A stretch of 64,000 nucleotides of DNA from an uncultured Gammaproteobacteria bacterium (GTDB taxonomy: Bacteria > Patescibacteriota > Patescibacteriia > Magasanikbacterales > GCA-002688135): contig CAZHVT010000001.1 in NCBI GenBank assembly GCA_964536205.1, positions 5,944 to 69,943 on the forward strand. Reading direction: 5' to 3'. The notes beneath the pieces are model-generated. The model saw only the letters and a program-made list of their open reading frames with translations. It was not told where the DNA came from and made no database searches. Of the stretch, positions 14,760-61,108 are shown in pieces (the first letter of the stretch is position 1; each line of letters opens with the position of its first letter). Position numbers and translations under genes: made by a program.

Positions 14760-14783
14760 ACACCACATAATGTGGTTTTTTTA
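14760..14783 (+). terminator. Rho-independent terminator ccacatAAtgtgg + T7
   Basis: Hairpin plus T-run ending an ORF-free transcript region. Confidence 0.55.
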
Positions 14784-15054
14784 TTTCTCTAAAAAATGCG
14801 GATGTGCCTGGCTTCTGGTGCGATAGATACTGAATTCCGTATTTACCATTACACCCACCTAACAAGAGCATTCACCATCCAAGAAATACAGCATCATCAG
14901 CACCAAGATCTAAGAGAGCAAATCTTCACCCACAACAATTTATTATATATTTTGTCACAAAAACCCCAACAAAAAAGTAAATTATTATCCCCAAACCAAC
15001 TTGACATAGCCCCTATTTCGGAGGATAATGATTTCATAATTTTGATATAGAAAT

Positions 15055-24368: not shown

Positions 24369-24572
24369 AATCTCCTTCGCGGAATATTATTTCCGGTTAC
24401 TTATTATACCATGAAAAGATATATTTTTTTATACTTTTTATGATGATTTCTGTGTATAAATTCTACATAAACTTTTTCTAAATTTAGGATGAAATAAATA
24501 TTTTAACTTGGAAAGAAAAAAACGGCCCTGGCCGTTTTTCTCATAGAACACTGAACTTAGAACTTGAAACAT

Positions 24573-27500
24573 TTAAGAGCCTTTTCCCTCACCAAAATAT
24601 CCTCCAGATTTTGGTAATGGTGGTAGTTTTGGAGGTGAGTCCGTATCACTCTCGCTTTCAGGTGTTTTTTCAGTGGGTTTTTTACCTTCATGAAATAGAT
24701 CCTTTGGTTCATTTGGATTTGTTGGTGTTTTGTCTGTTTCTGGAGTTGTTTTTTTCTCTGAAGGTAACGCTGTTGGAGTTGATCCCGAATCTGGGTGTTT
24801 TTGGGTGGTTTGTGCTTCTTCGAGCTGCTTATCCTGTTGTTGTGTGCTTTGTTCTTGTGTTTTTTGTTCCTGGCCTTCGCCGCGCTCTAACATTACTTTT
24901 TCACCAATAATTGTGGCTTCTTTTTTGTCTGATAAATCGAATACCTCACTCTTTTTCTTAATGAATCCCTTCTTTTCGTAGGTGACGTAGTATGTGCGTT
25001 GTGATGCGAGAAAGGCATATCTGCCGCGTGCATCAGTAAGTTGTGTATCCAACAGCTTGTTGTATTCTGTGTCGAAAATACGTGCAACTGTGTATCGCAA
25101 CGGTTTTCGTACAAATGCATCGAATACAATTCCCCATTCTTTTGGTTTCTTTGGATATGCAAGACGTCTTATGAGGAAGAATAATGCGATGTGAGCGAAT
25201 AGAATGAATATTGTTTTTGCGGTTGGAACAATGATTACCGAAACGAGCGCTAATACAATTCCCAACATTGAGATCCCAACTTGTACTTTTCGACCGATCG
25301 CCTTGAATATCAATTTCTTGATTGAAACATTGTCTGCCTTAGCTGGATCCAGAGGAATGTTTGGTGCGATGCGATGTGCTTCATTTTCAACGACGATTTC
25401 TTCGTTATGATAAAGTTCTGCGTATCGCCCATCAAGTTGTGTATCTTTGACGTATGTTGATGGGAAGGTGAATTTGTTTTTTGATGCTTCAAGTCTGTAT
25501 CTTCCTTGATCTACGAAGAATGCATATCGTCCGAGTTTGTCTGTGATTTTTGTTCTGATGATTCGCCCGGAATTTACATCGATCAGTCGAACATATGCGA
25601 GATCAACAGGATTTTTTGTGAGTGAGTTATATACCACTCCCCAACCCTTTCTTTTGCGTCGACTGAATAGCAAGAGTGGTTGTGTGAACATGAATTGAAG
25701 ATAGTGCAGCATCGAAGGCAAACCTGTTGCCGCGACAGTGTTTACTGCGATAGCTGTTGCAACAGTTGGAGCAACTGTTTGCTCCGTCGCATCCTCAACC
25801 TCTGGATTTTGTACGAATTTGATTGTTTCACGCACAGCAATTTTTGATCCATATGCAACTTTTTCTCCAACGTTTTCAGTGACATTTAATATGTTTTCGA
25901 GAACTGGAGCGTCGGGATCTATTACATCTGCGATTTTTTTCGGTATGCGAAATAGATCGAACGATCGATTTATGATGTTGTTTTCTATATCGAATGTTAC
26001 TGTTTCAGTTCGATGTCCTGGCTCACTTACTTCAATTTTGTATCGTCCATTTGGAATCATAAATCCGAACAGTCCATTTCCTGAAGTTGTGGTTGGATTT
26101 GTTTGACCATACGGCGATACATCAATATTGTTTCCATCTACGTCTGTGAGTTTGATTGAAGCTCCTGGAAGTGCAGTGAGTGTGCCGTCAGTTTTTGATG
26201 ATACTAACCCATACAGCGCCCCGCCGATTGTAAATGATGTTGTGTCTTCACTTCCGTCAGAGTATGCCACTCGCACAAATGATGATTCTTGGCCGGCTTT
26301 TTTCATCAGTGTTGCGTGATAGGATTTGTCACTTTCTTTGAGTGAGAATGTTTGTTCTCCGGTTACTAATGTGACTGATTGTACTTCTTTTTCAGCTTGT
26401 AGATTCTTTTTAGGTACGACTACACTTAGATCAAATCCTGTCAGAACTGTGACGGTATTTTTTATTGGCTTGAGTGTAATCGAGTATGAAGCGGTTGCAA
26501 ATGCAAGATCATTGATGTCGAAAACATCTTCTGGTGCGCTGCCAAATCCTATTAATCCCAGCGCTGTGTCAGCTATCCCCTTTTCTTCTTCTCCTTTTGG
26601 AATATCTGCAGCCTCATCAGCTCCTGCATCCTCACCATCACCACCTTGCGGTGGTTTGAATGGAATTTCGTCAGGAATTCCCGGCTCTTCTCCGTCGGTT
26701 TCTGGAAAGGCATCTTCATCGCACGCATCTCCAATTCCATTTGCATCTTTGTCGATTTGATCAGGATTGTGAACATCTGGGCAGTTATCCTCGTCATTTG
26801 GAAATCCATCGTTGTCTTTATCTGCGGCTACTGGCTCATCTTCCGGTTTTGGTTCAATCAAATCTCCTTGTGCGAGCGCGCCTGATGAAACATTTCCAGA
26901 TGTGTCTTTTGTGAATGCAACGAAATACACTTGTTTTGGAAATGATGCTTCTTTTGGAACTGAAATTATGATTGATGTTGTTTCTGCTGTTGTGGTTACG
27001 AGTGATAATCCGTCAGTTATACTTGTTGGTTTTGTATCTAAATTGTATCGAATAACTGTGCTTTCAAAATCTGGAACTGGTGGATTTTTCCATTTGAGAA
27101 TTGCGAGCCATGAGTAGTTGTTTTCTCCGATTGGTTCTGGAATTAAGTTTGCCTGAAAATCGATGACGTTTGGTGGTGACACTTCGTCAGTTAGTGTGTT
27201 AAATGTTTTTATTTCGAGTGTTCCATTTGATTGCGCATCAGCCACAAATACATTCACCTCTTGTGATGCATTTGAAATCAAATTCACAAATGTTGCGGTG
27301 TGTGTTGTGCTAAATCCTTCTGGTGCTTTTGTTTGTGGCTCAACCGTTTCGTGTTCTTGGTCAATTATTTGGATGACACTTGTGGTTGGCTCGTTCGTTG
27401 TTACCGTAATTGTTGCTGTGGTTTGGGTGATGTTTGTGATTTCAAATGATAGGATTTGTGGTGCAGTTGTGTCTGGAGTTTGGAATGATCCGACATCACT

Positions 27501-28553
27501 TGTTGTTGTTCCATAAGCACCCTCGGCTTTGACTATGTAAAAGTAGGTTGTGTCTGATAACAATTCTGAAATTGGAATTGCATGATTTGTTTCGTCTTGA
27601 GGATTTATGAGGATGATATCAAACGGCCCTTCGATGGATGTCGAGAGACTCACGTTTGATGCAACTGCTTCGCTTGTTTGCCAACTTAAAATTCCACTTG
27701 TGTCGCTGACTGATTGATATGAGATGCCGCTTATAGTTGGTGGTACACCTGTTGTGGTTGCTGATGTTTCGACTTCTTCAGATTCTTGATCTGTGGCGGA
27801 TGTGAGTCTTATAAAATATTCTGTGAGTGGTTCGAGTTGTGTGATTCCTACACTGTGTTGCGTGCTTAATTCTGCTGTATATGATTGTCCAATTTCATAT
27901 GCCGCGGTTTTTCCAAGTTCGAGTTTTGTGTCTGCGTCTTTATTTGTTACCCACGTTACAGTGATTTTGCCGGCTGTATCTGCATCTACTTGCACATCTG
28001 TTATTTCAAGTGCGACAAAATCTGCGGCTGGTGTAGTGATAACCACCTCTTCTTGCACAGCTAATTCTGTGTCTGTTGCTGATGAGATTTTTCCAAAATA
28101 CGTGATTTCAGGATTCAGACCTGTTAGCACCATTGTGTGATTACTCAATTCATTTGGGTCGTACGTGGATCCGAGTTCGTAGTTTAATGTTGTCCCCCAT
28201 TCCACTTGAGAATCTGCTGCATGATTCGTGGTCCATGTGATTTTCATGGATGTTCCTGATATCGGAGTTACTACCACATTTGAGATTGCGAGTGATGCTG
28301 GTGGATCTGGATCTAATGGGTCAACTGGAGGATCTGCTGGAGGATCTGGCTGACTAGGAGCTCCCCCGCCGCCTCCGGACGGAACAGTTGCCTCAATAAT
28401 CACATTTCCGGTACTTGTTGATATGATTTGAGAATGCGCGTCCTGTACTCCGGTTTGCATCAATCCAAAAGCTCCGAGCGCGAGCGCGGTGATTGCAATA
28501 TATATGTGTATGCTTTTTTGTAGGCGCTTAATCATATTGATTATCGTCATTTT
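24573..28553 (-). CDS. giant surface protein (about 1320 aa) with Fn3-like repeats, thrombospondin type-3 Ca-binding repeats, carboxypeptidase-regulatory-like domains and internal TM segments
   Basis: Signal peptide; repeated S..V.W.T Fn3-like units; DKDNDGFPNDEDNCPDVHNPDQIDKDANGIGDACDED is a TSP3 repeat; GRYKIEVSEPGH / GRYAFLASQ CarbopepD_reg-like; start is approximate. Confidence 0.65.
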   Translation of the reverse strand, partial: KMTIINMIKRLQKSIHIYIAITALALGAFGLMQTGVQDAHSQIISTSTGNVIIEATVPSGGGGGAPSQPDPPADPPVDPLDPDPPASLAISNVVVTPISGTSMKITWTTNHAADSQVEWGTTLNYELGSTYDPNELSNHTMVLTGLNPEITYFGKISSATDTELAVQEEVVITTPAADFVALEITDVQVDADTAGKITVTWVTNKDADTKLELGKTAAYEIGQSYTAELSTQHSVGITQLEPLTEYFIRLTSATDQESEEVETSATTTGVPPTISGISYQSVSDTSGILSWQTSEAVASNVSLSTSIEGPFDIILINPQDETNHAIPISELLSDTTYFYIVKAEGAYGTTTSDVGSFQTPDTTAPQILSFEITNITQTTATITVTTNEPTTSVIQIIDQEHETVEPQTKAPEGFSTTHTATFVNLISNASQEVNVFVADAQSNGTLEIKTFNTLTDEVSPPNVIDFQANLIPEPIGENNYSWLAILKWKNPPVPDFESTVIRYNLDTKPTSITDGLSLVTTTAETTSIIISVPKEASFPKQVYFVAFTKDTSGNVSSGALAQGDLIEPKPEDEPVAADKDNDGFPNDEDNCPDVHNPDQIDKDANGIGDACDEDAFPETDGEEPGIPDEIPFKPPQGGDGEDAGADEAADIPKGEEEKGIADTALGLIGFGSAPEDVFDINDLAFATASYSITLKPIKNTVTVLTGFDLSVVVPKKNLQAEKEVQSVTLVTGEQTFSLKESDKSYHATLMKKAGQESSFVRVAYSDGSEDTTSFTIGGALYGLVSSKTDGTLTALPGASIKLTDVDGNNIDVSPYGQTNPTTTSGNGLFGFMIPNGRYKIEVSEPGHRTETVTFDIENNIINRSFDLFRIPKKIADVIDPDAPVLENILNVTENVGEKVAYGSKIAVRETIKFVQNPEVEDATEQTVAPTVATAIAVNTVAATGLPSMLHYLQFMFTQPLLLFSRRKRKGWGVVYNSLTKNPVDLAYVRLIDVNSGRIIRTKITDKLGRYAFFVDQGRYRLEASKNKFTFPSTYVKDTQLDGRYAELYHNEEIVVENEAHRIAPNIPLDPAKADNVSIKKLIFKAIGRKVQVGISMLGIVLALVSVIIVPTAKTIFILFAHIALFFLIRRLAYPKKPKEWGIVFDAFVRKPLRYTVARIFDTEYNKLLDTQLTDARGRYAFLASQRTYYVTYEKKGFIKKKSEVFDLSDKKEATIIGEKVMLERGEGQEQKTQEQSTQQQDKQLEEAQTTQKHPDSGSTPTALPSEKKTTPETDKTPTNPNEPKDLFHEGKKPTEKTPESESDTDSPPKLPPLPKSGGYFGEGKGS

Positions 28554-29452
28554 TTTCGTTTTTGTATTATCATCCAGCCGAATAATGGCAAGAAAAAGAT
28601 CCACAATAATGGCGTGTAGATTATGAAACGTGATGTTAGTACCTCTCCCTGATAACCATTAAGTTGTAATTCGGCTTCGTACAATCCAATGCTTAGTGGG
28701 CTGAGCGCGTCATACCATTTGTTGTTTGCGTTCCAATATTGTCTGATTGTGCGTTGTGAATTTGGTAGGATTTTGTGAAAATCTTCGTTTATGGTTACGA
28801 AGTCTTGTGCCCCGGTAAATATATTTGTGACACTAATAATTCCTTGTGGTGTTGTATGAATTGAGCCTGTGTTTTCTAACATGAAAGATAGTTCAACTGG
28901 AAATCCTATAATTGTTTTGGGGGTTGCTGTGAACTCTTTAATTTCTTTTGTGATTTTCATGTCTCCCTCAACTGTGATGAAATGCAGAATTCCAACTTCA
29001 TTTGCGCTTGCGATGATTGCGTTTTCCGGAGGTCGTGTTCGTGCAAAAACTGCTGCGTAATATCCTCCTGGGTTTGCATCTGGCGGAACTGTTATGGTGA
29101 TGGGAATTTTTTTTGTTTCTTGTGGTTCAAGTGATATTTCTTGTTGTGGTACTTGAAACCATCTTACTGGCAAAGTCTCACTATCATCTGTAAATTCTGG
29201 CACACCTTCTGTTTCTCCTGCTGTGAATGCACGGACTTTAAAACTTACGAGTTCGATGAATGACGATTGATTGCTCACTTCTACTTCGAATTCGTGCCTT
29301 ACTCCTGCTTCTCCGATTACTTCTTTGGTGAATGGGCGTACACCGAGCGCGTCAGCTTTTGTTGGGATTATTACTGCTGTAAAACCTAATATCAATGCCA
29401 TCAATACTAAGATTGAGTGCCTATTTGTGTGAGTTTTTCTTAAAGTAAGCAT
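28547..29452 (-). CDS. cell-surface protein with N-terminal signal peptide and C-terminal TM anchor followed by KRKK
   Basis: Architecture read from hydrophobicity; ends LWIFFLPLFGWMIIQKRKK. Confidence 0.5.
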   Translation of the reverse strand: MLTLRKTHTNRHSILVLMALILGFTAVIIPTKADALGVRPFTKEVIGEAGVRHEFEVEVSNQSSFIELVSFKVRAFTAGETEGVPEFTDDSETLPVRWFQVPQQEISLEPQETKKIPITITVPPDANPGGYYAAVFARTRPPENAIIASANEVGILHFITVEGDMKITKEIKEFTATPKTIIGFPVELSFMLENTGSIHTTPQGIISVTNIFTGAQDFVTINEDFHKILPNSQRTIRQYWNANNKWYDALSPLSIGLYEAELQLNGYQGEVLTSRFIIYTPLLWIFFLPLFGWMIIQKRKK

Positions 29453-31836: not shown

Positions 31837-31920
31837 TTATTTGTTGAATTTGAGTTTACTCTGCTTTTTCCTCGTTTTGTGAGCTCAATGTTCTTTTTTT
31901 CTCATTCCTGTACATGATTT

Positions 31921-31951
31921 GTGGATATTCTGTGGATAGCGTGGATAAGTG
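31921..31951. promoter_or_regulatory. Three tandem DnaA-box-like motifs TGTGGATAT, TGTGGATAG, GTGGATAAG
   Basis: Direct reading; in the AT-rich region between tRNA-Arg and rmuC. Confidence 0.45.
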
Positions 31952-34791: not shown

Positions 34792-35184
34792 ATGAGCATT
34801 AGACTGAAGATTAAAACACCCCGACAGACCTTTGAGCGAATTCTCAATATGGTGAGGGGGCATTCAAAGGTGTATACGAGAAACGAAGAACTTCTCATCA
34901 TTTCATGTGGAGAGTTGAGCGGAGAGATTCTTGCGCGAGTCATCGCTCTTGGTGGGACGGTAAATCAAGAAAAGCCGTCTGATCTGGAAGACCCCGACAA
35001 ATTCATTCACTTTGAAATTGATGGCGTTCAATATGGTGCCGACCGCACACAATTTCTTGAGACTGGGTGTGTGCTTTTGCCCGGGGGGATGGTCATACGT
35101 ATTAATACTTGGAATGAGACTGCGCCTCCGACACCACGAACGTGGTCTGTTGTTCAAATGGCCAAAGCCTACCTTCTTCCATAG
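34792..35184 (+). CDS. hypothetical protein
   Basis: RBS AAGGATGG upstream; 130 aa. Confidence 0.45.
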   Translation: MSIRLKIKTPRQTFERILNMVRGHSKVYTRNEELLIISCGELSGEILARVIALGGTVNQEKPSDLEDPDKFIHFEIDGVQYGADRTQFLETGCVLLPGGMVIRINTWNETAPPTPRTWSVVQMAKAYLLP

Positions 35185-35198
35185 ACTAGGGACATCGC

Positions 35199-35471
35199 AT
35201 GTACGAACATTACCATGCCGTGATGATGCGATCTGTTCGAGATAAGTGGAAGGAATCTACTTTTCTTGACTGGGTTGCACGAAATTTAAATATGGATCGT
35301 TCGACGATTTCACTTCAGACAACAGTTCCAACAGAAGATGCAATAGAATCGGTTATCAGTTATCTCGTGTGGCATCATTGCTCTCTTGATAAAGGCCTGC
35401 TTCCAAAAGATCGACTCCCAACATTAGAAGAAATTCGATCGATTTTTTCTCACACATCTGGTGGTGATTAA
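35199..35471 (+). CDS. hypothetical protein
   Basis: 90-aa ORF followed by hairpin tcccgTACCGcggga + T6 at 35486-35506. Confidence 0.4.
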   Translation: MYEHYHAVMMRSVRDKWKESTFLDWVARNLNMDRSTISLQTTVPTEDAIESVISYLVWHHCSLDKGLLPKDRLPTLEEIRSIFSHTSGGD

Positions 35472-35539: not shown

Positions 35540-36247
35540 TTAACGAAAGAAAAGTTCTTGTGGATGAACATCTACAGTCGGTAGATTCCACCACCAATGC
35601 AGAAGCGGCTTCCATCGCGAAGCGCTGGGTGCGAAATACACGGAGTTATCTTGACTTGGAATCGCAGGAAATGCACCCCCGATGAAGTATGAAAAATGCT
35701 CATCCATTCCGAATTCATCAATCAAAGAAACATCGGTGTTGTTCTTGCGGGCAATGCAGAATATACAGTATAACCACGTGCATGTTACGCTACGTTTGTG
35801 AGTTATCTTTGCCCATAATTTGCAGTTTGTTGAATCGCACTCTTGGCATCGATAATTTTCCGGGATTGGCTTTTCAGGAAGTACCTCTAATTCTGACAAT
35901 CCTTCCCACAATCCTACATGAGCGGAGGTGAGACAGCTCTTACGTACCCACGAATCAGCAATGCACAGTCTTCCGCCCGTGAAGTACATGCATTTCACTG
36001 CGCGCGTGTATCCACGATCTTCACATATTTTCTCATTTTCTTGCGTTGTCGTGCTCTTGGTGACTATCTGCCTTGTTCCCACAATACACTCAGTGCATGC
36101 GTACTGCGTGTATCTCATCGGCAGTGACAATGATGATGGTCGGCCTATATAACCCGAAGCTTCCTTCCACCACAATCTACATTTACGAGCGCCACATGTC
36201 TGACAACTGTGTCCCATCATTGATTCCAATAGTACTATATCTGACAT
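35540..36247 (-). CDS. Cys-rich HPQELFF-tail family protein A (two zinc-ribbon-like modules)
   Basis: CQTCGARKCRLW...CTEC and CQECDSTNCKLW...CIFC; FPAIP; HWWWNLP; ends HPQELFFR. Confidence 0.7.
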   Translation of the reverse strand: MSDIVLLESMMGHSCQTCGARKCRLWWKEASGYIGRPSSLSLPMRYTQYACTECIVGTRQIVTKSTTTQENEKICEDRGYTRAVKCMYFTGGRLCIADSWVRKSCLTSAHVGLWEGLSELEVLPEKPIPENYRCQECDSTNCKLWAKITHKRSVTCTWLYCIFCIARKNNTDVSLIDEFGMDEHFSYFIGGAFPAIPSQDNSVYFAPSASRWKPLLHWWWNLPTVDVHPQELFFR

Positions 36248-36255
36248 GTTCCCCC

Positions 36256-36615
36256 CTATTGAAAGAATTTTTCTTGCGGATGGATTTCTTCAGGAGCGTC
36301 CTTCGTGGGTATGTTCAGATGAGCAAATGCTTTCGCGAGCTGTACTGGCAGCTCCCACTCCTCATCCTCTTCTTCATTCCATGGATGTACGAAGGTAAAC
36401 CTACAACTATGCATTTTTGCAGCAGAATTAAGCTTTTTACCCAAGAGGCACTTATGATCTGCTGTTATGTATGGACAAGTTATTGGTTTTACAACTGTGC
36501 TTGCATCACCGTGCTTCTCAATCCGAACATACAAATTTACAGGTTTCACTAGAATCGCAGCTCCATTAGCCCCAACTCCAACACAATCAACACGAATATC
36601 AAGTGTGTCTTCCAT
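36256..36615 (-). CDS. divergent HPQEKFF-tail family protein (lacks canonical zinc ribbon)
   Basis: Ends ...NIPTKDAPEEIHPQEKFFQ; start placed at MEDTLD directly after the upstream gene stop, with GGAGGAAAC RBS. Confidence 0.55.
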   Translation of the reverse strand: MEDTLDIRVDCVGVGANGAAILVKPVNLYVRIEKHGDASTVVKPITCPYITADHKCLLGKKLNSAAKMHSCRFTFVHPWNEEEDEEWELPVQLAKAFAHLNIPTKDAPEEIHPQEKFFQ

Positions 36616-36623
36616 GTTTCCTC

Positions 36624-37305
36624 CTACTGAAAGAATAGTTCTTGTGGATGGATGCGTTGCGTTTGGAGGTTGCGCCACCATATAACGCGATCCTCTGGCG
36701 CGGCGGTGAATTTCCAGTAGCCTGTGCCTTCTAAGTTTGGCACTGCAGGCATATACGAACCAATCCAATCTGTTTTGACGTTTTCGCGAGCAAAGAGAGG
36801 ATTTACTATTTTCCCCTGATCATCAATTTTATTTACATCGATTCCAACATCTTTTGCCACACATTCTGCACAAAATGTCGATGTGCCGTTTTGCTTTCGC
36901 CACAACTTACAGTCATCTGCAGCACATTCGATACACCAATAATTTTTTGGTGTACCAATTGAGGATGTATCAATGTTCGGTCGTGCTTTTGTTTCCAGTG
37001 CACACCACCATTTCACGGCGTCGTCTGGAGCCCCTGCATATTCCCAGTAAGCCGAATTGTCAGGAAGCGGAATAGCGGCATAATACCACCCAATCCGATC
37101 ATTTTTGAGACCGTCGTCATCTGTAAACACTCCCGAATCATCCATGTCGCTGATGTTTTTTTCTTCTCTTCGAGAAGCACATGGTGCGCACACAAGACCG
37201 TATGACGGTACTGAGAAGTTTCTGAACAATTTACAGTTTGTGGAATTGCACTCGCGACAATAGTAATCAGCAGGAATCTCGTTTGTACTATAATCCAACA
37301 TCATC
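36624..37305 (-). CDS. Cys-rich HPQELFF-tail family protein B/C (two modules)
   Basis: CRECNSTNCKLF...CAPC and CIECAADDCKLW...CAEC; AAIP/PAVP; WWCALE/WWRNLQ; ends IHPQELFFQ; AGGAGG RBS before ATGATG. Confidence 0.7.
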
Positions 37306-37312
37306 GTACCTC

Positions 37313-38029
37313 CTATTGAAAGAATAATTCTTGTGGATGTGATGACTCTACAGGGAGTCGCTTCCACCAATCGAGCATTTCTTTGGTGATTTGTTCATTC
37401 CGCGCAGTGCCATGATTGGACGTCGCTTGTGCAGATGGGATTGCTGGATCCCATCTCGACTCAGGCAGATATGGTTTTATGTATGGAATATCCACCCCTC
37501 TTGGATTTTCTTCAACATCCTCATGAGTCAGCAGCTTCACCTTCATTATGCATGCCTTGCAAGATAATTCAAGATTATCGCTTTCCCAAAGTTGCATTCC
37601 TGTCTGCTCGCACTCCAAGCATCTATACCATTCGGGAACCTCACTCGCTGTGTAATCGAATACATTTTCGTCTGCATCTTCTTCAGGCTCGATGATGCCT
37701 AGTTTCTGTAGCACTGGGATAATCTCTCCGGGTGGTTTCCAGCCGGGGTTTTGTTTTTTCGAATATAGATAGTCAAAAGACAATCGACAATAAACCCCCT
37801 TTCTCTCTGGATCACATGTTTGACTCATGACGAAACATCGTGAACCAGATTCCTCACGACCAAACATGCACTCTTCCACTCTGACACGTACGTCAGATTC
37901 TTTGCTCAGCTTTAGAATCCCTATACGTACACTAACCCCCGCCCCCTCTAAGACAGGCTGGCCTTCGAAATCATAGCCCTCACATACCACTCTGGTTATT
38001 ACATCAATTCTTCCTGTGTCCTTAGTCAT
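37313..38029 (-). CDS. Cys-rich HPQELFF-tail family protein D
   Basis: CLECEQTGMQLW...CKAC; DPAIP; DWWKRLP; ends SHPQELFFQ; own TTGACA-N17-TACATT promoter. Confidence 0.7.
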   Translation of the reverse strand: MTKDTGRIDVITRVVCEGYDFEGQPVLEGAGVSVRIGILKLSKESDVRVRVEECMFGREESGSRCFVMSQTCDPERKGVYCRLSFDYLYSKKQNPGWKPPGEIIPVLQKLGIIEPEEDADENVFDYTASEVPEWYRCLECEQTGMQLWESDNLELSCKACIMKVKLLTHEDVEENPRGVDIPYIKPYLPESRWDPAIPSAQATSNHGTARNEQITKEMLDWWKRLPVESSHPQELFFQ

Positions 38030-38127
38030 AGCCGTCTTCTCCTTTTGTCAAAGAGCCTTTGAAATGTACGTTATTTTTTGTGGTTTGTCAATAGTTTAGA
38101 GAAAATAAAACCCCACTTACCGCGGGG

Positions 38128-38487
38128 CTATCTGAAGAATTTTTCTTGTGGATGCATGGGGTGTGTTGGGATATTCCTCCACCATAAACTCTCTTGCGCG
38201 CTGTTTGGTGTGTCTGTATACCATCCTCCGTCCTTGTTCCGTCTCGGGATTGCGGGGATGAACCAGCCTATGTGATTTGTTCTACCGGGGTGTTCTCGAT
38301 AGTGCGGATCAGAAATTGTTCCATCATCGTCTATTTCTTCGGTTGTTATTTTGACCCTTCTGGCGACGCATGCAACACAGTATGTGGTGTCTATCCTTTC
38401 TGTTTTCCATAACTTGCATTGAGATGCACCACACAAACTACACATGTAAGAGTCGGGTATATTCTGTGAGCTGTAGTCAAACGACAT
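38128..38487 (-). CDS. Cys-rich HPQEKFF-tail family protein E
   Basis: CSLCGASQCKLW...CVAC; IPAIP; LWWRNIP; ends MHPQEKFFR; own TTGACA-N17-TACATT promoter and terminator ccccgcggtaagtgggg. Confidence 0.7.
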   Translation of the reverse strand: MSFDYSSQNIPDSYMCSLCGASQCKLWKTERIDTTYCVACVARRVKITTEEIDDDGTISDPHYREHPGRTNHIGWFIPAIPRRNKDGGWYTDTPNSAQESLWWRNIPTHPMHPQEKFFR

Positions 38488-38619
38488 GCGCACCCCCATC
38501 TGAATAATTCTTTTTGTGGCCGGATCTCTTTTTTGGTTCTTGTTTTAATTGGAGGCCATCTCCCTATATTCCAAAGAGTTATTGTAATGTACGGTGCTGT
38601 GATGTACTTGTCAATAATT

Positions 38620-38644
38620 AAAAACCTCAACCGCAGTTGAGGAA
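38620..38644 (-). terminator. Terminator hairpin cctcaaccGCAGttgagg + T-run on the minus strand
   Basis: Near-identical copy of the hairpin at 35518-35535. Confidence 0.55.
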
Positions 38645-38675
38645 TTTTATTGAATTAATGCTCCTTGTGAATGTT

Positions 38676-39008
38676 TTAGGGTACATTCGGCAAGCTCATC
38701 CACCATTGTGCTTGTGATTTTGTGTGGTGTCCTGTTGCCACATATTTCTCGTGTGAATCTAGTATGGCTGGGTAGTAGGCTCCGAGATTCCAGATTCTAC
38801 ACTCTGTATGATTCAGAGTGCATATACGTGTCCCATCTTCCCCTATATCCCTCAGACTTATCCCGAAATAATTAGTCAGACACACAATGCATTGCAACCC
38901 CTTGAAGCTTGGGTTCTTCCACAACTTACATTGTTTTGCGCCACATACTGCACACAGATAAAAGTCGGGTATCGACCTTGGTGTATCTTCTTGTAATGCG
39001 TCGTCCAT
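38676..39008 (-). CDS. Cys-rich family protein F (tail-less: ends WWMSLPNVP)
   Basis: CAVCGAKQCKLW...CIVC; YYPAIL; WWMSLP; promoter TTGACA-N17-TATTAT and GGGGGG RBS upstream. Confidence 0.65.
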   Translation of the reverse strand: MDDALQEDTPRSIPDFYLCAVCGAKQCKLWKNPSFKGLQCIVCLTNYFGISLRDIGEDGTRICTLNHTECRIWNLGAYYPAILDSHEKYVATGHHTKSQAQWWMSLPNVP

Positions 39009-39075
39009 TTTGACCCCCCGCATGTATTAATAAAAGAACAGCACATAATATCAAATATACTTGAATATGTCAACC

Positions 39076-39348
39076 CTACACCAGGTCATTTCCACCTTTG
39101 TTCCAAGGGTTGCAGCGGAGGATTCTAAAGAGTGTTTTTATTGATCCTTTTGTTAGGCCGTATTTTTTTATTGATTTGTAACTGTACTGCGAGCATGTTG
39201 GATTGAATTTGCAGTATCCGTGTGGGAAGAATTTTTTGAGCGGGCCGTGATCTGGAGAGAGTGTTTTTTGATAGAGGCGTACTAAAAACATTCCAATATG
39301 GCGGGGAATGTGTAGGATGTTCATACTGGCGTTTGTGCTAATCCTCAC
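39076..39348 (-). CDS. yidD: membrane protein insertion efficiency factor YidD
   Basis: YQKTLSP...CKFNPTCSQYSY...ILRCNPWNKGGNDLV matches the YidD/haemolytic-domain signature. Confidence 0.75.
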   Translation of the reverse strand: MRISTNASMNILHIPRHIGMFLVRLYQKTLSPDHGPLKKFFPHGYCKFNPTCSQYSYKSIKKYGLTKGSIKTLFRILRCNPWNKGGNDLV

Positions 39349-39377
39349 GAGATCCTTCGACTTCGCTCAGGATGACG

Positions 39378-39761
39378 CTATCGCGTCAGTTTTGAGATGA
39401 GCTCCTTCATGTTTTCCATCACATCTTTATATGAAGCTGCGCGCTCGGGAGGCGTTTTTTGACCCTCTTCTTTCGGTTTGGTGTATGTGGTAGATGCTGA
39501 TCGTGCTTGAATAACAACATCAAAACCTTTTGGAACTGTTTCCAAAATTTCTCGCAATGATTCGCGAACACGACGTTTGATTAAATTTCGAACTGTGGCT
39601 CGTTTTGCAACTTTTGTACTTACAACTACTGCGAAGCGAGTTTCTTCTGCATTTGTTTTCAAAACTTGATACCGAAAAAGCGGCGTTATTACGCGCCGCC
39701 CTTTTTTAAATACTTTTTTAATGTCTCGTTCCGCCCGAAGTCTGTTTTGTTTGGGCAACAT
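39378..39761 (-). CDS. rnpA: ribonuclease P protein component
   Basis: MLPKQNRLRAERDIKKVFKKGRR... basic 127-aa protein, conserved RnpA N-terminus; adjacent to rpmH. Confidence 0.85.
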   Translation of the reverse strand: MLPKQNRLRAERDIKKVFKKGRRVITPLFRYQVLKTNAEETRFAVVVSTKVAKRATVRNLIKRRVRESLREILETVPKGFDVVIQARSASTTYTKPKEEGQKTPPERAASYKDVMENMKELISKLTR

Positions 39762-39767
39762 AGTAAT

Positions 39768-39905
39768 TTATACAGCAAGAGACTTTCTTCCTTTGGCACG
39801 ACGTCTTTTCAAAATGTTACGTCCTCCTGGAGAATTTGTTCGAGCTCGAAAACCGTGCTTTCGTGCACGTTTTCTTACTTTTGGTTGATATGTTCGCTTA
39901 GGCAT
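39768..39905 (-). CDS. rpmH: 50S ribosomal protein L34
   Basis: [45 protein letters not shown] is near-consensus L34; upstream part of the listed ORF is not translated. Confidence 0.9.
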
Positions 39906-39959
39906 ATGTTTATTGGGCAGTAGGTTGCAGGGAGCAGGCAGTAGTTTTGCTTCGCTCAA

Positions 39960-40285
39960 TGCTTTATTTGTGGGGGTATACTAACATTGTGGATTTTGTT
40001 TGGCAAGAGGTTGGGATGCACCGCGACATTTTGAGTATGTGTGGATAAGGGTTGACAGAATCCACAGGTCACGATAGGCTTAAATTCTAGCTATTGTTAG
40101 TGAATTAATATATTTTTAAAAATATATTCACACTTATTTTTTACATTTATCCACACTATCCACAAGTTTTCCACATGGTACACACATATCGTAAACAGTT
40201 GACCCTTTTCAAAGAATATTTTGTGATGTATCATCAGAAGACTTGTACTTTTATCGGGTGTGATACCCCATGACCTCCCACTATT
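39960..40285. promoter_or_regulatory. oriC DnaA-box region upstream of dnaA (TGTGGATTT 39989-39997, TGTGGATAAG 40041-40050, ATCCACA 40071-40077, TTATCCACA 40147-40155, TATCCACA 40157-40164, TTTCCACA 40167-40176) with an AT-rich tract at 40100-40140
   Basis: DnaA-box consensus matches plus the canonical rpmH | dnaA-dnaN synteny and the strand switch at this point. Confidence 0.65.
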
Positions 40286-41683
40286 ATGATGACGAATGAA
40301 TCAATCTGGCAAGCAGTGCTTGCAGAATTGGAGCTAGAGCTCTCTAAAGCGAACTTTACGACGTGGTTTCGTAATACTTCATTATCTTTAATGGAGAATA
40401 ATGAGGTTTCAGTGTATGTCCCTAATAACTTCACCAAATCATGGTTGGAGAAAAAGTATCACACATCTATATTGAAAACCCTTGAACAGGTTCTTGGAGC
40501 TCGTATTCAAAAGGTTGCGTATTGCGTTGAGAAAAATCCACAAAAATCCCAAGCTTCTTTTATCACACAAGGTTTCACCTTCAATCACGATTCTGCAGAC
40601 AATTCACTTACTGTTGGCCCACAGGCTCCTGTGGTACAGCAAAATCCAAATGCGCGCGGCTTACACCCGCGTTATGTTTTTGAAAATTTTATTGTGAGTA
40701 AAAGTAATGAGTTGGCACATGCCGCGGCGCAGGCTGTGGTATCCAACCCCGGTGCTTCTTATAACCCCCTCTTTATATACGGCGGAGTTGGGCTTGGAAA
40801 AACTCATTTAATGCAAGCGATCGGACACTCTGTTTTGCAACAAAATCAAGAGGCGAAAGTTTTGTATGTTTCTTGCGAGACATTTACGAATGATTTCATT
40901 CACGCAGTTCGCAATGGTTTGGCAAAAGAATTTAAAGATCGTTATCGCAATGTTGATGTATTGATTGTTGATGATATTCAATTTATTACTGGAAAAGAGG
41001 GGACGCAGGAAGAGTTTTTTCACACGTTTAATGCGCTTCACCAACAGGATAAGCAGATTATTATTTCATCAGATCGTCCACCAAAAGCAATTCCGGCATT
41101 GGAGCAGCGATTACTTTCTCGTTTTGAATGGGGGATGATTGCTGATATTTCATTTCCAGATGTTGAAACACGTGTGGCTATTTTGGAAGCGCGTTGCTCA
41201 GAGCGTGGTATTAAAGTTCCATCAGATGTATTGCACACTATTGCAAATCACATCCAAAATAATATTCGTGAATTAGAAGGAGCTTTGAATAAAATTATTG
41301 CGACGATTGAAATGCACAAGAGTGAGCCTACGTCTGAAATGGTACAGCAAGTTTTAGGAAGTATTAAAGCATCACGCACCATTCACTCTGTATCACCTAA
41401 GGAATTGATTAGAGTGGTTTCTGAATACTTTGATGTAGGTATTGATGATATGGTTGGAAAAAGCCGTGAGAAACGTATTGCATTCCCACGACAGATTATT
41501 ATGTATTTGTTGCGTAAGGAGATGAAAAACTCATATCCTTCGATTGGAGCGGAGTTGGGTGGACGAGATCATACAACTGCGATTCATGCGTATGAGAAGA
41601 TTCGTAAGGCTGTTGAGGTTGATAATAAACTCAAAGCCGACATACAGTATATTAAAGAACGATTGTATACGCCTGCGGCGTAG
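40286..41683 (+). CDS. dnaA: chromosomal replication initiator DnaA
   Basis: AAA+ Walker A GGVGLGKTHL, sensor motifs, C-terminal DNA-binding helix-turn-helix; 465 aa. Confidence 0.95.
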   Translation: MMTNESIWQAVLAELELELSKANFTTWFRNTSLSLMENNEVSVYVPNNFTKSWLEKKYHTSILKTLEQVLGARIQKVAYCVEKNPQKSQASFITQGFTFNHDSADNSLTVGPQAPVVQQNPNARGLHPRYVFENFIVSKSNELAHAAAQAVVSNPGASYNPLFIYGGVGLGKTHLMQAIGHSVLQQNQEAKVLYVSCETFTNDFIHAVRNGLAKEFKDRYRNVDVLIVDDIQFITGKEGTQEEFFHTFNALHQQDKQIIISSDRPPKAIPALEQRLLSRFEWGMIADISFPDVETRVAILEARCSERGIKVPSDVLHTIANHIQNNIRELEGALNKIIATIEMHKSEPTSEMVQQVLGSIKASRTIHSVSPKELIRVVSEYFDVGIDDMVGKSREKRIAFPRQIIMYLLRKEMKNSYPSIGAELGGRDHTTAIHAYEKIRKAVEVDNKLKADIQYIKERLYTPAA

Positions 41684-41702
41684 TGAGTTGGTGAGACTAT
41701 TT

Positions 41703-41767
41703 CGTTGTACGTTCTACGTTGTACGTTCTAGGGTGATTTCTAGAATGTAGGACGTAGAACGTAGAAC
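41703..41767. repeat. Imperfect long palindrome built from direct repeats (CGTTGTACGTTCTA)x2 ... TAGAATGTAGGACGTAGAACGTAGAAC just downstream of dnaA
   Basis: Read directly; same architecture class as 1961-2090. Confidence 0.55.
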
Positions 41768-42064
41768 TTTTCCACTCTTTAATCACATGTTGGTAGGGTG
41801 TGAATTCGGTCGAACAACTGGTGTATAAACATTCAGTTGTGCACAGGAAAATCTAGAACGTTTTGTTCATACACATTTCGTACACATAGCATTTCACAGT
41901 CAGTGTGTATAAATTATCGTCTAAATTTAAAACAAAAATATAGTTGTTAGACTTATCCCGTGCCTTATTATTACTATTAGTTTAATTTATATAAAAATAT
42001 ATAATATAGCGTTTCAGAAAATGAGAATCTAGGAGGAACTTACACACACTAACCCAAAGAGGAT

Positions 42065-43189
42065 ATGAAGTTCTCATGCACAAAGGAGAATTTACTCAAA
42101 GCATTAACCTGTACAGGATATGTATCAGGTAAACAGGTGAACTTACCGATATTGCAAAATGTGTTGATATCGATGAAGAATACCGAAACTAAGATTGTGT
42201 CGACTAATTTGGAGATTGCTGTTTCAGCGCAGTTGCGAGCAAAAGTTGAGACTGATGGAGAATTTACAGTTCCAGCTCGAGTATTTTTGGAGTATATGGC
42301 GAATGTTCCAGGTGATCGTGTTGATATTGAATTGCATGAATCTGGATTGGGTGTTCAGATGGGGCATTCAAAAACTGTTTTGAAGGGGATGGAAGCTACG
42401 GAATTTCCGTTGATTCCAGGAATTGAGGGGGATGTAGTATTTGAGTTAGATGCGAAAGTTTTATTGAATGCATTGCATCAGGTTTTGTTTGCTGCATCTA
42501 AGAGTGATGTGCGTCCTGAATTATCTGGAGTTTTATTTCATTGTAATCCACCCGAAGGAAAACAAAGTTTGGTGTTGGCGGCGACAGATAGTTTTCGATT
42601 AGCTGAAAAGAAAATTACGTTTAAGAGTGGGGGAACAGAGGAAAAGCGAGTGATTGTTCCATCTCGTACAGTTTCCGAATTGGTTCGCATTATAAATGTT
42701 TCGACGAAAGAAATTGATAGTGTAACGATGCGTGTTTCTGATCATCAGATTGTGTTTGTGTGTGGTGGTGTGCAAATTACTTCGCGATTGACTGATGGGA
42801 ATTATCCGAACTATGAACATATTATCCCCAAGGAATCGAATGTTGAGATGAGTGCGTTGAAGGATGATGTGGTGAAGCAGGTGAAGGGTGCGAGTTTATT
42901 TACGACAAAGGGAATTGGTGCGGTGCGGATGAAATTTGTGGCAGCAGAAAATAAAATTAATATTACATCGACGAATGCGCAGACGGGTGAGCACGCGGGG
43001 AGTGTTGTTGCTGAAGGGAAGGGTGATGAGGTTGAGATGTATTTGAATCATCGATATATTTTGGATGGGTTGAGTGTGATTGATAATGAGCGAGTGAAAT
43101 TTTCCGCGCAATCTACTGATGCGCCGTTGGTGATGCGTCCGCAGATGGATAAGGACTATCTTTACATGATAATGCCTATTAAGCAGTAA
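42065..43189 (+). CDS. dnaN: DNA polymerase III beta sliding clamp
   Basis: 374 aa, three-domain clamp; synteny with dnaA. Confidence 0.9.
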   Translation: MKFSCTKENLLKALTCTGYVSGKQVNLPILQNVLISMKNTETKIVSTNLEIAVSAQLRAKVETDGEFTVPARVFLEYMANVPGDRVDIELHESGLGVQMGHSKTVLKGMEATEFPLIPGIEGDVVFELDAKVLLNALHQVLFAASKSDVRPELSGVLFHCNPPEGKQSLVLAATDSFRLAEKKITFKSGGTEEKRVIVPSRTVSELVRIINVSTKEIDSVTMRVSDHQIVFVCGGVQITSRLTDGNYPNYEHIIPKESNVEMSALKDDVVKQVKGASLFTTKGIGAVRMKFVAAENKINITSTNAQTGEHAGSVVAEGKGDEVEMYLNHRYILDGLSVIDNERVKFSAQSTDAPLVMRPQMDKDYLYMIMPIKQ

Positions 43190-43446
43190 CCGCTCGCGAG
43201 GAGGGCGATATATGTTTGCTTCATAAAACATTTGCTCGACGTACGCCTGTACGACTCGCTGCATGTTTTACTCCAGCTGCGCATATCTCATCCCACCTCA
43301 CTTCGCTAGCTTCGTGGATAGCTTTCAGAATTTTCTTATTCGAGTTATTGTTTAATAGCCCTCATTTCGAAAATTCTTCCAAACACGCACATTTCATCTC
43401 AATATACTTTGCTGACTTCGTGGTAGGTTATTGTGCTTGCATGTAC

Positions 43447-43472
43447 TGTCATTCCCGCGAAGGTGGGAATTC
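43447..43472 (+). repeat. R1 hairpin repeat copy c
   Basis: TGTCATTCCCGCGAAGGTGGGAATTC in the dnaN-downstream intergenic region. Confidence 0.65.
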
Positions 43473-43570
43473 AGAAAATTCAAGAGTAAAAGTAAAAACC
43501 AACGATTTTAAGCGTATCATTCTGGGGTGAGGTATGAATGATAGAATATGGTTTTATAAACATGGATCCC

Positions 43571-43596
43571 GTACGACTACGGGATGACAGGTACAA
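43571..43596 (+). repeat. R2 hairpin repeat (CATGGATCCCGTACGACTACGGGATG); second copy at 53646-53671
   Basis: 26-bp element with internal hairpin cccgtaCGACtacggg, followed by GATGACA resembling the R1 3' end. Confidence 0.55.
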
Positions 43597-43666
43597 CACT
43601 TTGTAGAATGTTACATTGTATAAATTTAAATTGAATTAAAAAACCGCTGGCGTGCCGGCGGTTTTA

Positions 43667-44353
43667 CTATTGGAAGAATTTTTCTTGTGGGTGTTGTTCT
43701 GTCGAGTCGGGGAGTGATTCCCACCATGCGATCATTGAGCCTGTGATGGTGTGTCTGAGTTCAAAATATTCGCGTGTCATGTGGGTTGGTATTGCAGCTC
43801 GAAAAAAACGTTTGCTAAAGCTCAATTCAACTTTTGGTACACGTATTTCGTTTAGATTTTTATGGGGCGTATGTATTTTCAGCACATTGACTTGTATATC
43901 ACTCATACACTTATAACACAGTAACATTCCGAAGTTGTTTATCCATAGCTTACATGTCGTTGCTTCACACTCATCACATTTGTAGTGAAGAGGAATATCA
44001 ATTCCCTCATGGTGTTGTGGAATTTTGTCGTCTAGTACATTTTCCGTTGTTGGTTGTACCGACAAACTTTTCCACCAACTCCAACCTTTTTCAGTTAATG
44101 AGGTGTATGGTGTGTATAGTTGGGCACGTGAATTTTTCGGTACTGCTGGGTGGAATGGTCCGATTTTATCATTATTAGTAGTCAGATCTTCGAAGAAATT
44201 ATCACGAATGCAATTCCAGCATTTTAATGCTACGTCATCCATGTGATCTGTTCGTGTAAACCACAATCTGCAGTTTGTTGCATTACATTTTTTACAGAGG
44301 TACCACGGTGGGCACTCTTTGAGCTTCAGATTGAATACTCCGAATTTTGCCAT
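43667..44353 (-). CDS. Cys-rich HPQEKFF-tail family protein G/H (two modules)
   Basis: CKKCNATNCRLW...CWNC and CDECEATTCKLW...CYKC; HPAVP/AAIP; WSWWKSL/AWWESLP; ends QHPQEKFFQ; AAAAGGAG RBS. Confidence 0.7.
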   Translation of the reverse strand: MAKFGVFNLKLKECPPWYLCKKCNATNCRLWFTRTDHMDDVALKCWNCIRDNFFEDLTTNNDKIGPFHPAVPKNSRAQLYTPYTSLTEKGWSWWKSLSVQPTTENVLDDKIPQHHEGIDIPLHYKCDECEATTCKLWINNFGMLLCYKCMSDIQVNVLKIHTPHKNLNEIRVPKVELSFSKRFFRAAIPTHMTREYFELRHTITGSMIAWWESLPDSTEQHPQEKFFQ

Positions 44354-44461
44354 GCCATCTCCTTTTGTTTGTAATGAACGGTTTTTAGATTAGTGGATTT
44401 TTTGGGTTCTGTCAAGGTGTTGACTTGTTATGAAATAAAAAAACCACCGGAGTGTCGGTGG

Positions 44462-44827
44462 TTAGTGAAAGAACAATTCTTGTGGGTGGAGTTCTGGTGC
44501 TTTTTCTTGTGCGTGCCACCAGGTCATCATTTCTTGTGTGATGTCGTCGATCCACGGTGTGTGTTGTTGCTTGCAATCAGTTCTTTTGCATTTTGTTGGG
44601 ATTGCTGGTTCGAACCAACTCATAGTAATCAACTCTACCCCATGTGCGTTTTTTTCTGTTTCGATTCGTGACTTTTCGTCTAGCTCGTCGTTATGTAAGC
44701 ATGTTCCGCATATGAATTCTGGGTTGATTAAGATACCGGAACTTCGCCATAGCTGTACATAATCATTTCCACATCTTGCGCATATATAATCTTGTCTTTG
44801 TGGACAAAATGTTCTGGTGTGTTTCAT
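44462..44827 (-). CDS. Cys-rich HPQELFF-tail family protein I
   Basis: CARCGNDYVQLW...CGTC; EPAIP; TWWHAQE; ends LHPQELFFH. Confidence 0.7.
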   Translation of the reverse strand: MKHTRTFCPQRQDYICARCGNDYVQLWRSSGILINPEFICGTCLHNDELDEKSRIETEKNAHGVELITMSWFEPAIPTKCKRTDCKQQHTPWIDDITQEMMTWWHAQEKAPELHPQELFFH

Positions 44828-44871
44828 GTGTATCTCCTCAAGATCTAGCTCACTTTATAGCGTGAGAGATT

Positions 44872-45615
44872 TTACTGAAAGAACAATTCTTGTGGGTGAA
44901 TTTCTGGTTCTTCTGGGAGGTTCATCCACCACTCGTTCATGACATAATGCATGGAGAATTGATTTACCATATATGTTGGGTCGACCATGCTGGGTACTGC
45001 GTTTAAATAATTGCCTCGCATAAAGTAGTAATGATCCCTACCTTGTGATGCAGTCTGCATTTTATCTGAATTTATGAGATTGAGACACGCTGTACAGATG
45101 AGTGCTGGTTTTATTTTGTCTGACGATAGGTTTGGTTGTCATAACCTACAGTCAGTTTGTTTGCATTGATTACAGACATAATTTTCTGGCACAGTTCTTC
45201 CATAATAGTCGAACCATGACTCCTTTTTTTTCATGGGCGGTGGTTTTTCGGGGAGGTTGGCCCACCATTCCAACATATCATCAGTGAAGTTACTTGATCG
45301 TTCTGATTGTTTTGTGTCTTGTGCGATAGGGATTGCTGGTATGAATGCACCTTTTACGGGATAGATGAGACCTTTTACGTTTCTAAATTTAGCATCCCGT
45401 CCTGCTATTTCATTATGGGGTAAGCATGTGGTGCACCACAATATTGATCTGTATAGTGTTGCTCTTGACCTTCGCCATAGGCGACAATTTGTTATTCCGC
45501 ACATGTTGCAGACATAACCATCCGGCACTACTTTTTCGAAATAGTTGAGCATGATTTTACCTTTTGGGTTGTGAAAGGACTTATGGATAATAGTGTTTTC
45601 TTGTTGGATTGTCAA
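44872..45615 (-). pseudogene. Two-module Cys-rich family gene (K/J) interrupted by an in-frame TGA exactly at the conserved Trp of the second CxxCx5C(K/R)LW motif
   Basis: 45139..45615 ends ...YVCNQCKQTDCRL-TGA; the same frame continues QPNLSSDKIKPALICTACL...WWMNLPEEPEIHPQELFFQ (44872..45060). Paralogs have W (TGG) at this position. Confidence 0.6.
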
Positions 45616-46641: not shown

Positions 46642-46760
46642 TTCAATTTGTATTATTCGTGGGTGTAGTGTGGATAAGCTGTGTTTATAGTGGATAAGTA
46701 TCATTAATTTGGATTATATATGAGTATGGTATATAGTTCAAGCGTTCTTTACTTATTTAC

Positions 46761-60619: not shown

Positions 60620-61108
60620 TTAATTAAAAAATTTTTCTTGCGGATGCGGTGTTGTGTCTACTTCTTCAGCGCTTACTTCAAATGCTTCGGCGAGCGCGAG
60701 AATGGCTTTACCCCATCTGTTTTCTTTCGTAAGCGGTTTGAGGTAGTTTGTGGATTCTCGTTCGCTATTAGCAACCTGTTGTTTCATGAGATTGCTTTGT
60801 CTGACAATTTCATGAATGATGAGCTGGATTGCTTCTTTTTCCGAACCATCACAGTCGCTTGCGAGTTCCTGGCACATGGTGAGATATTCTTGGAAAGAAC
60901 TTTCAAAGTAATTTACGTATGTTTCTGTTGTTGGTTGTGCGTCTTTTTTACCCAAGCCTGCGGCAAATGAGCAGAAGTTCCCTGTAGTTGCATCGAGACT
61001 TTTTGGACTTAGGGGTTTCATTCGTATACCAAAAGGATGTGAGAAACCGCGCAAATCGTACTGTGTCATCACGATTGCTCGGTCGATGTTTGCTGTGAGA
61101 AATGACAC
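60620..61108 (-). CDS. non-Cys-rich protein carrying the same C-terminal tail (…TPHPQEKFFN)
   Basis: GTG start 6 nt after AAAGGAG; N-terminal region unrelated to the zinc-ribbon paralogs; own promoter and terminators. Confidence 0.55.
   Translation of the reverse strand: MSFLTANIDRAIVMTQYDLRGFSHPFGIRMKPLSPKSLDATTGNFCSFAAGLGKKDAQPTTETYVNYFESSFQEYLTMCQELASDCDGSEKEAIQLIIHEIVRQSNLMKQQVANSERESTNYLKPLTKENRWGKAILALAEAFEVSAEEVDTTPHPQEKFFN

Follow-up and report, generated by a model that had tools for sequence, protein, structure and literature searches.

Two arrays of diversifying zinc-finger-like proteins with a portable C-terminal peptide, a candidate docking tag, beside dnaA and dnaN in a Patescibacteria genome

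SspB-type adaptors dock on ClpX through a conserved C-terminal peptide (the XB peptide, LRVVK), degrons of the ssrA type end in ...LAA, and known type IV secretion signals are degenerate. Partners of the beta sliding clamp, DnaN, carry motifs of the form Q-phi-x-L-F: MutS QLSFF binds the clamp, Phe being tolerated at position 4, and the MutL motif QEMIVP, which has Glu at position 2, shows no measurable clamp binding (bioRxiv 10.64898/2026.05.27.728225, from which our clamp-motif criteria are taken). In Patescibacteria, type IV secretion systems are widespread and are thought to have been repurposed for non-conjugative functions (PMC12102498). Here we describe two arrays of small Cys-rich proteins encoded in a 64,000-nucleotide stretch of contig CAZHVT010000001.1 (hereafter the window; GC content ~41%), which belongs to a genome of the Candidate Phyla Radiation (CPR)/Patescibacteria: in the 90%-identity cluster of its DnaA, the sole named protein is labelled ‘Parcubacteria group bacterium’. 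Most of these proteins end in one short peptide, HPQE(L/K)FF(Q/R/H), which we call the tail. The tail is confined to a narrow lineage, is portable between unrelated proteins and is selected at the peptide level. We give roughly even chances to the reading that the arrays encode diversifying small soluble binding domains that share the tail as a portable C-terminal docking tag.

The arrays lie on either side of a core with the gene order yidD–rnpA–rpmH, four DnaA boxes (40040–40175) and dnaA–dnaN. They comprise nine genes in about five transcription units, and eight of these genes contain a total of 12 copies of one module. Array 1 runs from G1 to G6 and array 2 from G7 to G9/10; two remnants and a tail-bearing protein encoded outside the arrays are included in the following list.

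G1, 35540..36247, minus strand: two modules, the first degenerate; tail HPQELFFR; last gene of the G4-G1 operon.
G2, 36256..36615, minus strand: domain B, with 4 conserved Cys and without the GATA-like module; tail HPQEKFFQ.
G3, 36624..37304, minus strand: two modules; tail HPQELFFQ.
G4, 37313..38029, minus strand: domain B and one module; tail HPQELFFQ; promoter-like site at 38091-38063.
G5, 38128..38499, minus strand: one module; tail HPQEKFFR; promoter-like site at 38614-38586; terminator at 38129-38109.
Tail remnant, 38501..38526, minus strand: decayed 3′ end (..RPQKELFR..) between the promoter-like site and the start of G5.
Decayed G6 tail, 38647-38673: out-of-frame copy (CATTCACAAGGAGCATTAATTCAATAA).
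G6, 38676..39023, minus strand: one module, tail lost; terminator at 38642-38625, homologous to that of G1.
G7, 43667..44353, minus strand: two modules; tail HPQEKFFQ; convergent with dnaN.
G8, 44462..44827, minus strand: one divergent module; tail HPQELFFH; terminator at 44463-44442.
G9/10, 44872..45552, minus strand: two-module gene broken by a TGA; tail HPQELFFQ; promoter-like site at 45615-45587.
149-aa protein, 60620..61069, minus strand: unrelated to the module; ends PHPQEKFFN; 34 nt upstream of a CotH-kinase-like gene (58952-60586).

An initial annotation of this DNA had described the minus-strand genes, the motifs of the module and the tail, all of which are present. The ten genes it counted are nine, as open reading frames (ORFs) of 62 aa and 158 aa (44872-45060 and 45139-45615) make up a single gene, G9/10, interrupted by an in-frame TGA at 45139-45141. 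This codon replaces the invariant Trp codon of C-R-L-W and is present in both deposited contigs, from the European Nucleotide Archive (ENA) and the Joint Genome Institute (JGI); the window matches ENA metagenome scaffold SUTE22-1 scaffold_16 (211 kb) without a difference, and JGI contig Ga0118721_1000030 differs from it at 1 of 20,372 bases. The gene starts with the ATG at 45552, the apparent TTG start at 45615 being a -35 hexamer. Since TGA is the normal stop of 11 other confident genes in the window, the genetic code is standard and a recoded genome (TGA as Trp or Gly) was rejected. In G9/10, either TGG has recently mutated to the nonsense codon TGA, or the TGA is read through as Trp.

Two further claims of the annotation held in part. 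It had built every gene from the module; G2 has domain B instead, which recurs as the N-terminal half of G4 (BLASTP E 1e-4). It had also given most genes a promoter and a terminator of their own, and about five units can be recognized; G4, G3, G2 and G1, however, succeed one another at distances of 8–9 nt, each stop being followed by a GGAGG box, and therefore constitute one operon. Of the eight best promoter-like sites in the region, four immediately precede G10 (the upstream part of G9/10), G6, G5 and G4, terminators follow G1, G5, G6 and G8, and the eight intact ORFs have strong ribosome-binding sites. As had been stated, N-terminal signal peptides were found in none of the array genes, nor were transmembrane segments (maximum Kyte-Doolittle 19-residue average, 1.32), and the encoded proteins are neutral to acidic.

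The tail was delineated from 16 known examples, which give the consensus [HS][PT]-Q-E-[LKAR]-F-F-[QRHNEK]-COOH. Described beforehand as nearly invariant in the arrays, it is so in most genes and has been lost from G6. The pattern CAYCCNCARGARNNNTTYTTY occurs nine times in the window, where chance would give 0.3, and the ninth occurrence (60626-60646) lies outside the arrays, on the unrelated 149-aa protein. The neighbour of this protein in the segment 58952-61069 (minus strand) is a 544-aa CotH-kinase-like protein (PF08757, E 2e-23) with an N-terminal membrane anchor, and the two genes are probably co-transcribed. When one genome per species was scanned (185,579 species), the pattern matched 75 times, which is about the chance expectation, and was ORF-terminal only in a sister metagenome-assembled genome, ARS125; the ~70 matches outside ARS125 lie in short ORFs at chance level. 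A metagenome scan added, among the matches listed, only ARS125-like contigs, and no further tails were found beyond the window on the one flank examined.

At least six types of domain carry the tail. Besides the module and domain B, these are the 149-aa protein, a protein of 104 aa (L078), a zinc ribbon of 63 aa (L087) and, in the sister strain L009, a ClpX-type zinc finger fused to the module. The fusion is a 206-aa protein (L009:328-948, in ERZ930062 contig k127_78734) that has at its N-terminus a genuine ClpX-type zinc finger (PF06689, E 3.9e-14), together with a second stretch rich in Cys, a single module and the tail variant STQEKFFQ.

Conservation at the 3′ ends of so many genes could in principle reflect DNA rather than protein, and the initial annotation had suggested that the conserved 3′ sequence mediates cassette shuffling, that is, that it is a recombination site. 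Consistent with this, the ribosome-binding site of the next gene directly follows the tail in the G4-G1 operon, the 3′ untranslated region and terminator are homologous in G1 and G6 (78% identical over 54 nt), and gene content varies by strain. The tail codons, however, vary synonymously: Leu is encoded by CTT, CTA, TTA or TTG, His by CAT or CAC and Pro by CCA or CCG, and Phe varies as well. DNA identity drops to 60-70% directly outside the tail coding constraint, with neither longer nor flanking inverted repeats, and no long DNA repeats were found in the arrays. Integron attC-like sites flanking the cassettes were not found, the only hairpins being ordinary terminators of differing sequence, and monocistronic genes at other sites of the genome finish with the same peptide. 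Because of the synonymous variation, the lack of an extended DNA repeat and the presence of the tail on unrelated genes elsewhere, we conclude that it is a peptide motif and not a DNA site; shuffling at this sequence is highly improbable. Between strains the tail is unchanged, and the remainder of the proteins differs by 50–60%.

Other signals of similar position were compared with the tail. A membrane-targeting helix or sortase-type signal was rejected, as the tail is too short and acidic and there is no transmembrane segment. An ssrA-type degron has non-polar last residues (..LAA), and the last residue of the tail is Q, R, H, N, E or K; an Rfam scan of the window returned three tRNAs only, with no tmRNA for comparison with the tail. 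The core Q-E-x-F-F-[QH] is resembled by residues ~241-249 of DnaA (40286-41683), TQEEFFHTF, a segment conserved across bacterial DnaA proteins. As its helix is buried in the AAA+ fold, mimicry of DnaA by the tail was judged to be a probable coincidence. Two module proteins of other lineages, P0041 and P0018, have short C-terminal extensions with ‘KFF’ or ‘SFF’ (..PDVNKFFLLKNP and ..TRISFFHCV..), which may be distant or independent variants of the tail.

We then consider the module itself. In an alignment of all 12 copies (A1), P15, C20, C23, L30, C41, C44, A83, W106 and W107 (G5 numbering) are invariant or nearly so, at pairwise identities to G5 of only 16–38%, and the zinc ligands and core motifs are kept in 11 of the 12. 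A second profile (A2), built mainly from other genomes and also including G5 of the window and its relative P0076, finds all 12 window modules, the intact ones with E values of 5e-34 to 1e-13. Word-indexed searches (G3, A1, A2) returned almost only the window's own or unnamed hypothetical proteins, which wrongly suggested an orphan family; this status was overturned by an exhaustive profile search that recovered 1,233 cluster representatives at E≤1e-3, 450 of them at E≤1e-10. Typical members are 105–125 aa long and end directly after WWxxLPTxP, with no tail (consensus, Y.C..CGAtGCKLWR…LLCA.CAA…ID..G…TDQIGw.VPAVPte..YWgY..vP…WW..LPT.P). None of the relatives carries a name, and the earlier impression of an unannotated family is upheld: Pfam, NCBIfam, PHROG and PADLOC gave no significant whole-domain match, the predicted module structures have no fold neighbours in the PDB, BFVD viral structures gave no match at E≤0.001 (best E 0.9), and tblastn against GenBank phages (INPHARED) found none.

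AlphaFold2 models are confident, with predicted local distance difference test (pLDDT) scores of 87.5 for G5 and 92.4 for a typical tail-less member; in the G5 model the tail is a separate terminal element of lower confidence. Given these models and the lack of signal peptides and transmembrane segments, the proteins look soluble and folded. The zinc-finger core that had been proposed for them is GATA-like, its C-X2-C-X17-C-X2-C lying within the GATA spacing of C-X2-C-X17-20-C-X2-C: in G5 the ligands are C20, C23, C41 and C44, the two pairs being 17 residues apart, and both A1 and A2 show little or no variation in these columns. Among PDB entries, sequence-profile hits below E 0.01 were confined to the GATA-1 and GATA-3 fingers (E 0.005; each finger alone, E ~1). 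The Pfam GATA model PF00320 scored at best 19.4 bits, on typical members, which is under its gathering threshold of 26.8 bits, and had no hits on the window proteins. With GATA-1 and GATA-3 as the only PDB hits and Cys pairs in GATA spacing, the module is therefore best described as a new domain built on a GATA-like finger, namely a domain of ~105 aa in which a CX2CX17CX2C treble-clef zinc finger is followed by a beta/alpha subdomain with PA(I/V)P and WWxxLP. The family is large, carries no name in any database and has a confidently predicted structure without a PDB neighbour.

Counts from local profile searches place the expansion of this family in one lineage. There are 12 modules in the window, three in ARS125 (L003), three in L009 and one at each other locus. 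Outside the lineage the family is single-copy at every locus, whether cellular (L006, L231 and L232) or viral (25 IMG/VR loci, on contigs many of which are 100–450 kb long). All three cellular contigs are CPR-like. In L231 (JGI Ga0568923_0000214) a tail-less member (10001-10339), followed by an unknown gene of 129 aa, interrupts the ribosomal-protein operon between rpsJ (S10) and rplC (L3); the member in L232 is near lon, thyX and greA, and that in L006 is on a contig of 826 kb. No recurrent Pfam partner was found among 147 pooled neighbours of the viral family members.

Within the lineage, both gene content and sequence turn over rapidly. ARS125 has only orthologues of G3 and G4 beside yidD and nothing between dnaN and a LysR gene, and L009 has three different genes after dnaN. 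The LysR gene had been regarded as a dedicated regulator of one array; it adjoins dnaN in L003, L004 and L005, which have no array there, and because ARS125 has nothing between the two genes it is not dedicated to the array. The expectations that copy number and order vary among close relatives (3 to 12 modules) and that the family evolves fast are borne out: G3, G4 and G8 are 40–50% identical between strains, with dN (nonsynonymous divergence) ~0.5, as against 96–98% for DnaA and DnaN and 85–92% for RnpA, LysR, Nfo and Ino1 of the same strains. The ratio of nonsynonymous to synonymous divergence (dN/dS) of family pairs is 0.17-0.33 with dS saturated, for which reason the pairs may not be strict orthologues. 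The two arrays are thus a lineage-specific, high-turnover expansion of a widespread small-protein domain. Convergent with array 1 are two unannotated plus-strand genes of 130 aa and 90 aa (34792-35471), whose position is kept in ARS125; they too evolve fast, being 71% and 56% identical to their ARS125 counterparts, versus 92-98% for neighbouring housekeeping genes.

Rapid divergence raises the question of whether the arrays are decaying, functionless paralogs of one gene. The nonsense codon of G9/10, the lost tail of G6, the tail remnant without a gene and the degenerate first module of G1 (G1a) all point in that direction. We nevertheless consider general decay very unlikely, in view of the eight intact ORFs with strong ribosome-binding sites, the placement of four of the best promoter-like sites upstream of family genes and the terminators that follow them, the retention of zinc ligands and core motifs in 11 of 12 modules, a tail that is invariant across strains, the dN/dS values (with the saturation noted) and the confident AlphaFold2 model.

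The reading that we favour is that the tail acts as a docking tag. The module and at least five unrelated small domains have acquired one portable C-terminal linear peptide in this narrow marine Parcubacteria lineage, and through this peptide a single receptor would be shared by a diversifying set of recognition domains that are small, soluble, cytoplasmic and zinc-binding, much as the XB peptide docks SspB on ClpX or clamp-binding peptides dock their proteins on DnaN. Judged from the distribution and conservation of the peptide, the tail most likely binds a common partner. As receptor, the ClpX zinc-binding domain, or ClpXP, is a tentative candidate, for which the L009 fusion of ClpX-type zinc finger, module and tail provides a possible Rosetta-stone link. 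A secretion coupling protein is a somewhat weaker candidate and the beta sliding clamp one that we rate slightly lower still, the remainder of the probability falling to something else.

Several observations weigh against a docking tag or against particular receptors for it. All 16 known tails belong to some three strains that are close relatives, and so are not independent of one another. Exchange of 3′ ends could have spread the tail without a shared receptor. The loss of the tail from G6 and the nonsense codon of G9/10 imply that some copies are decaying. With respect to ClpX, the tail is unlike both LRVVK and the ...LAA degrons, and only one contig, of 5 kb, has the fusion.

One alternative is that the tail is specifically a beta-sliding-clamp-binding motif and that the proteins are clamp-tethered zinc-finger factors at the replisome or origin. 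Q-E-x-F-F fits the critical positions 1, 4 and 5 of Q-phi-x-L-F in 16 of 16 tails, the tail stands at the extreme C-terminus behind a short linker, like the motifs of many clamp partners, and the arrays are directly beside dnaN or dnaA in three strains. At position 2, however, where clamp motifs prefer an aliphatic residue, the tail has an invariant Glu, and the sole Glu-2 motif cited above, that of MutL, has no measurable binding; the invariant His-Pro that precedes the core is not a clamp-motif feature and is left unexplained. The other tail genes (60620, L078 and L087) are away from dnaN, ARS125 has nothing between dnaN and LysR, and at least nine competing, fast-evolving ligands would be odd for a replication function. 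A clamp-binding role is for these reasons doubtful.

A second alternative is that the tail is an export signal and the proteins are diversifying effectors for the host cell of an episymbiont, delivered for example by a Patescibacteria type IV secretion system whose coupling protein reads C-terminal signals. Unrelated or variable N-terminal domains joined to a conserved C-terminus, without a signal peptide at the N-terminus, in genes that evolve fast and differ in copy number from strain to strain, are the classical picture of effectors, and the tail is hydrophobic at -2 and -3 and acidic at -5. The secreted or immunity/effector-like character suggested in the initial annotation is putative. 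However, no secretion genes were seen in the 64-kb window or the fetched flanks, and a strict 7-residue motif is atypical, type IV signals being degenerate. Typical family members stand singly among housekeeping genes (e.g., between rpsJ and rplC), which suggests an intracellular role for the domain, and zinc-finger domains are typically cytoplasmic. Export seems unlikely on balance, if a little less so than a clamp-binding role.

If the tail is indeed a docking tag, it could serve as the address label of an unknown protein-targeting pathway of a CPR lineage, in which a strain-variable zinc-finger repertoire is docked on one machine. That machine might be ClpXP, with the array proteins as substrate receptors that destroy phage proteins (cf. 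F-box repertoires), or an export apparatus that passes effectors into the host cell; a pathway of either kind is a speculative proposal to which we assign a low probability. The observations matter in more than one respect. They bring to light a large unrecognised domain family, whose robust clusters number at least 450 and come from CPR-like genomes and from viral contigs of IMG/VR. They also show a short linear motif that has spread across unrelated proteins in one lineage, which is rarely seen in bacteria and is a signal that can point to a new interaction hub in uncultured organisms. Should a protease, the sliding clamp or a coupling protein for secretion turn out to be the receptor, the arrays would offer a directly testable entry to the dealings of ultra-small episymbionts with phages and hosts; should no receptor be found, the arrays remain a hypervariable gene island next to the origin.

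Additional features of the window were recorded. Further genes include polA, holA, clpP, tig and the CotH-like kinase. Five DnaA boxes, two of them perfect (TTATCCACA) and three with one mismatch, are clustered within 73 bp at 13845-13917, inside a 1.7-kb stretch (13333-15054) without an ORF of at least 110 aa; smaller clusters are at 31920-31948 and 46669-46697. The cumulative GC skew has its minimum near 22-24 kb and not at dnaA, and there may be a true origin or a DnaA-titrating site away from dnaA. Two giant adjacent ORFs occupy 19797-28604 (minus strand); that of 1,523 aa has no Pfam match, and that of 1,343 aa, with fn3, purple-acid-phosphatase-N, CarboxypepD_reg and TSP3 repeats, likely encodes a surface protein. 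A 381-aa protein (11267-12412, minus strand) has as its sole hit a sub-threshold RanBP-type zinc ribbon at the N-terminus and is a further zinc-finger protein without annotation.

How far the proteins of the arrays resemble described systems can be stated for the module and for the tail in turn. GATA fingers (PDB 3vd6 and 4hc7) share with the module the C-X2-C-X17-C-X2-C spacing, the CxxCGAT..LWR....LCxxC signature and the helix after the second Cys pair. The finger, however, accounts for only the first ~35 of ~105 module residues, and the PAxP strands and WWxxLP helix have no counterpart in GATA proteins. GATA fingers are eukaryotic, whereas the module family is bacterial and viral and neutral to acidic; no basic tail like that of the GATA DNA-binding fingers was noted in module-protein sequences. 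DUF7573 (PF24458; 39 residues, function unassigned in Pfam) produced recurrent weak hits of 14-27 bits on the first zinc-finger stretch, but none at its threshold of 30.2 bits, and covers only the finger. For the tail, beta-clamp motifs (PolC QLSLF, MutS QLSFF) are alike in having Q at position 1, aromatic or hydrophobic residues at positions 4 and 5 and a C-terminal location, and the array genes adjoin dnaN; they differ in that the tail has Glu at position 2 with His-Pro before it, and occurs in one lineage only, whereas every bacterium has DnaN. The SspB-type ClpX adaptors offer the same arrangement of a folded domain, a short linker and a conserved C-terminal peptide, but the array proteins have no sequence similarity to SspB or its XB peptide, and their linker is only 4-7 residues long. 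Compared with the initial annotation, the feature gains interest through the portable tail on unrelated proteins and is less exotic as regards the module, whose family is large and lacks only a name.

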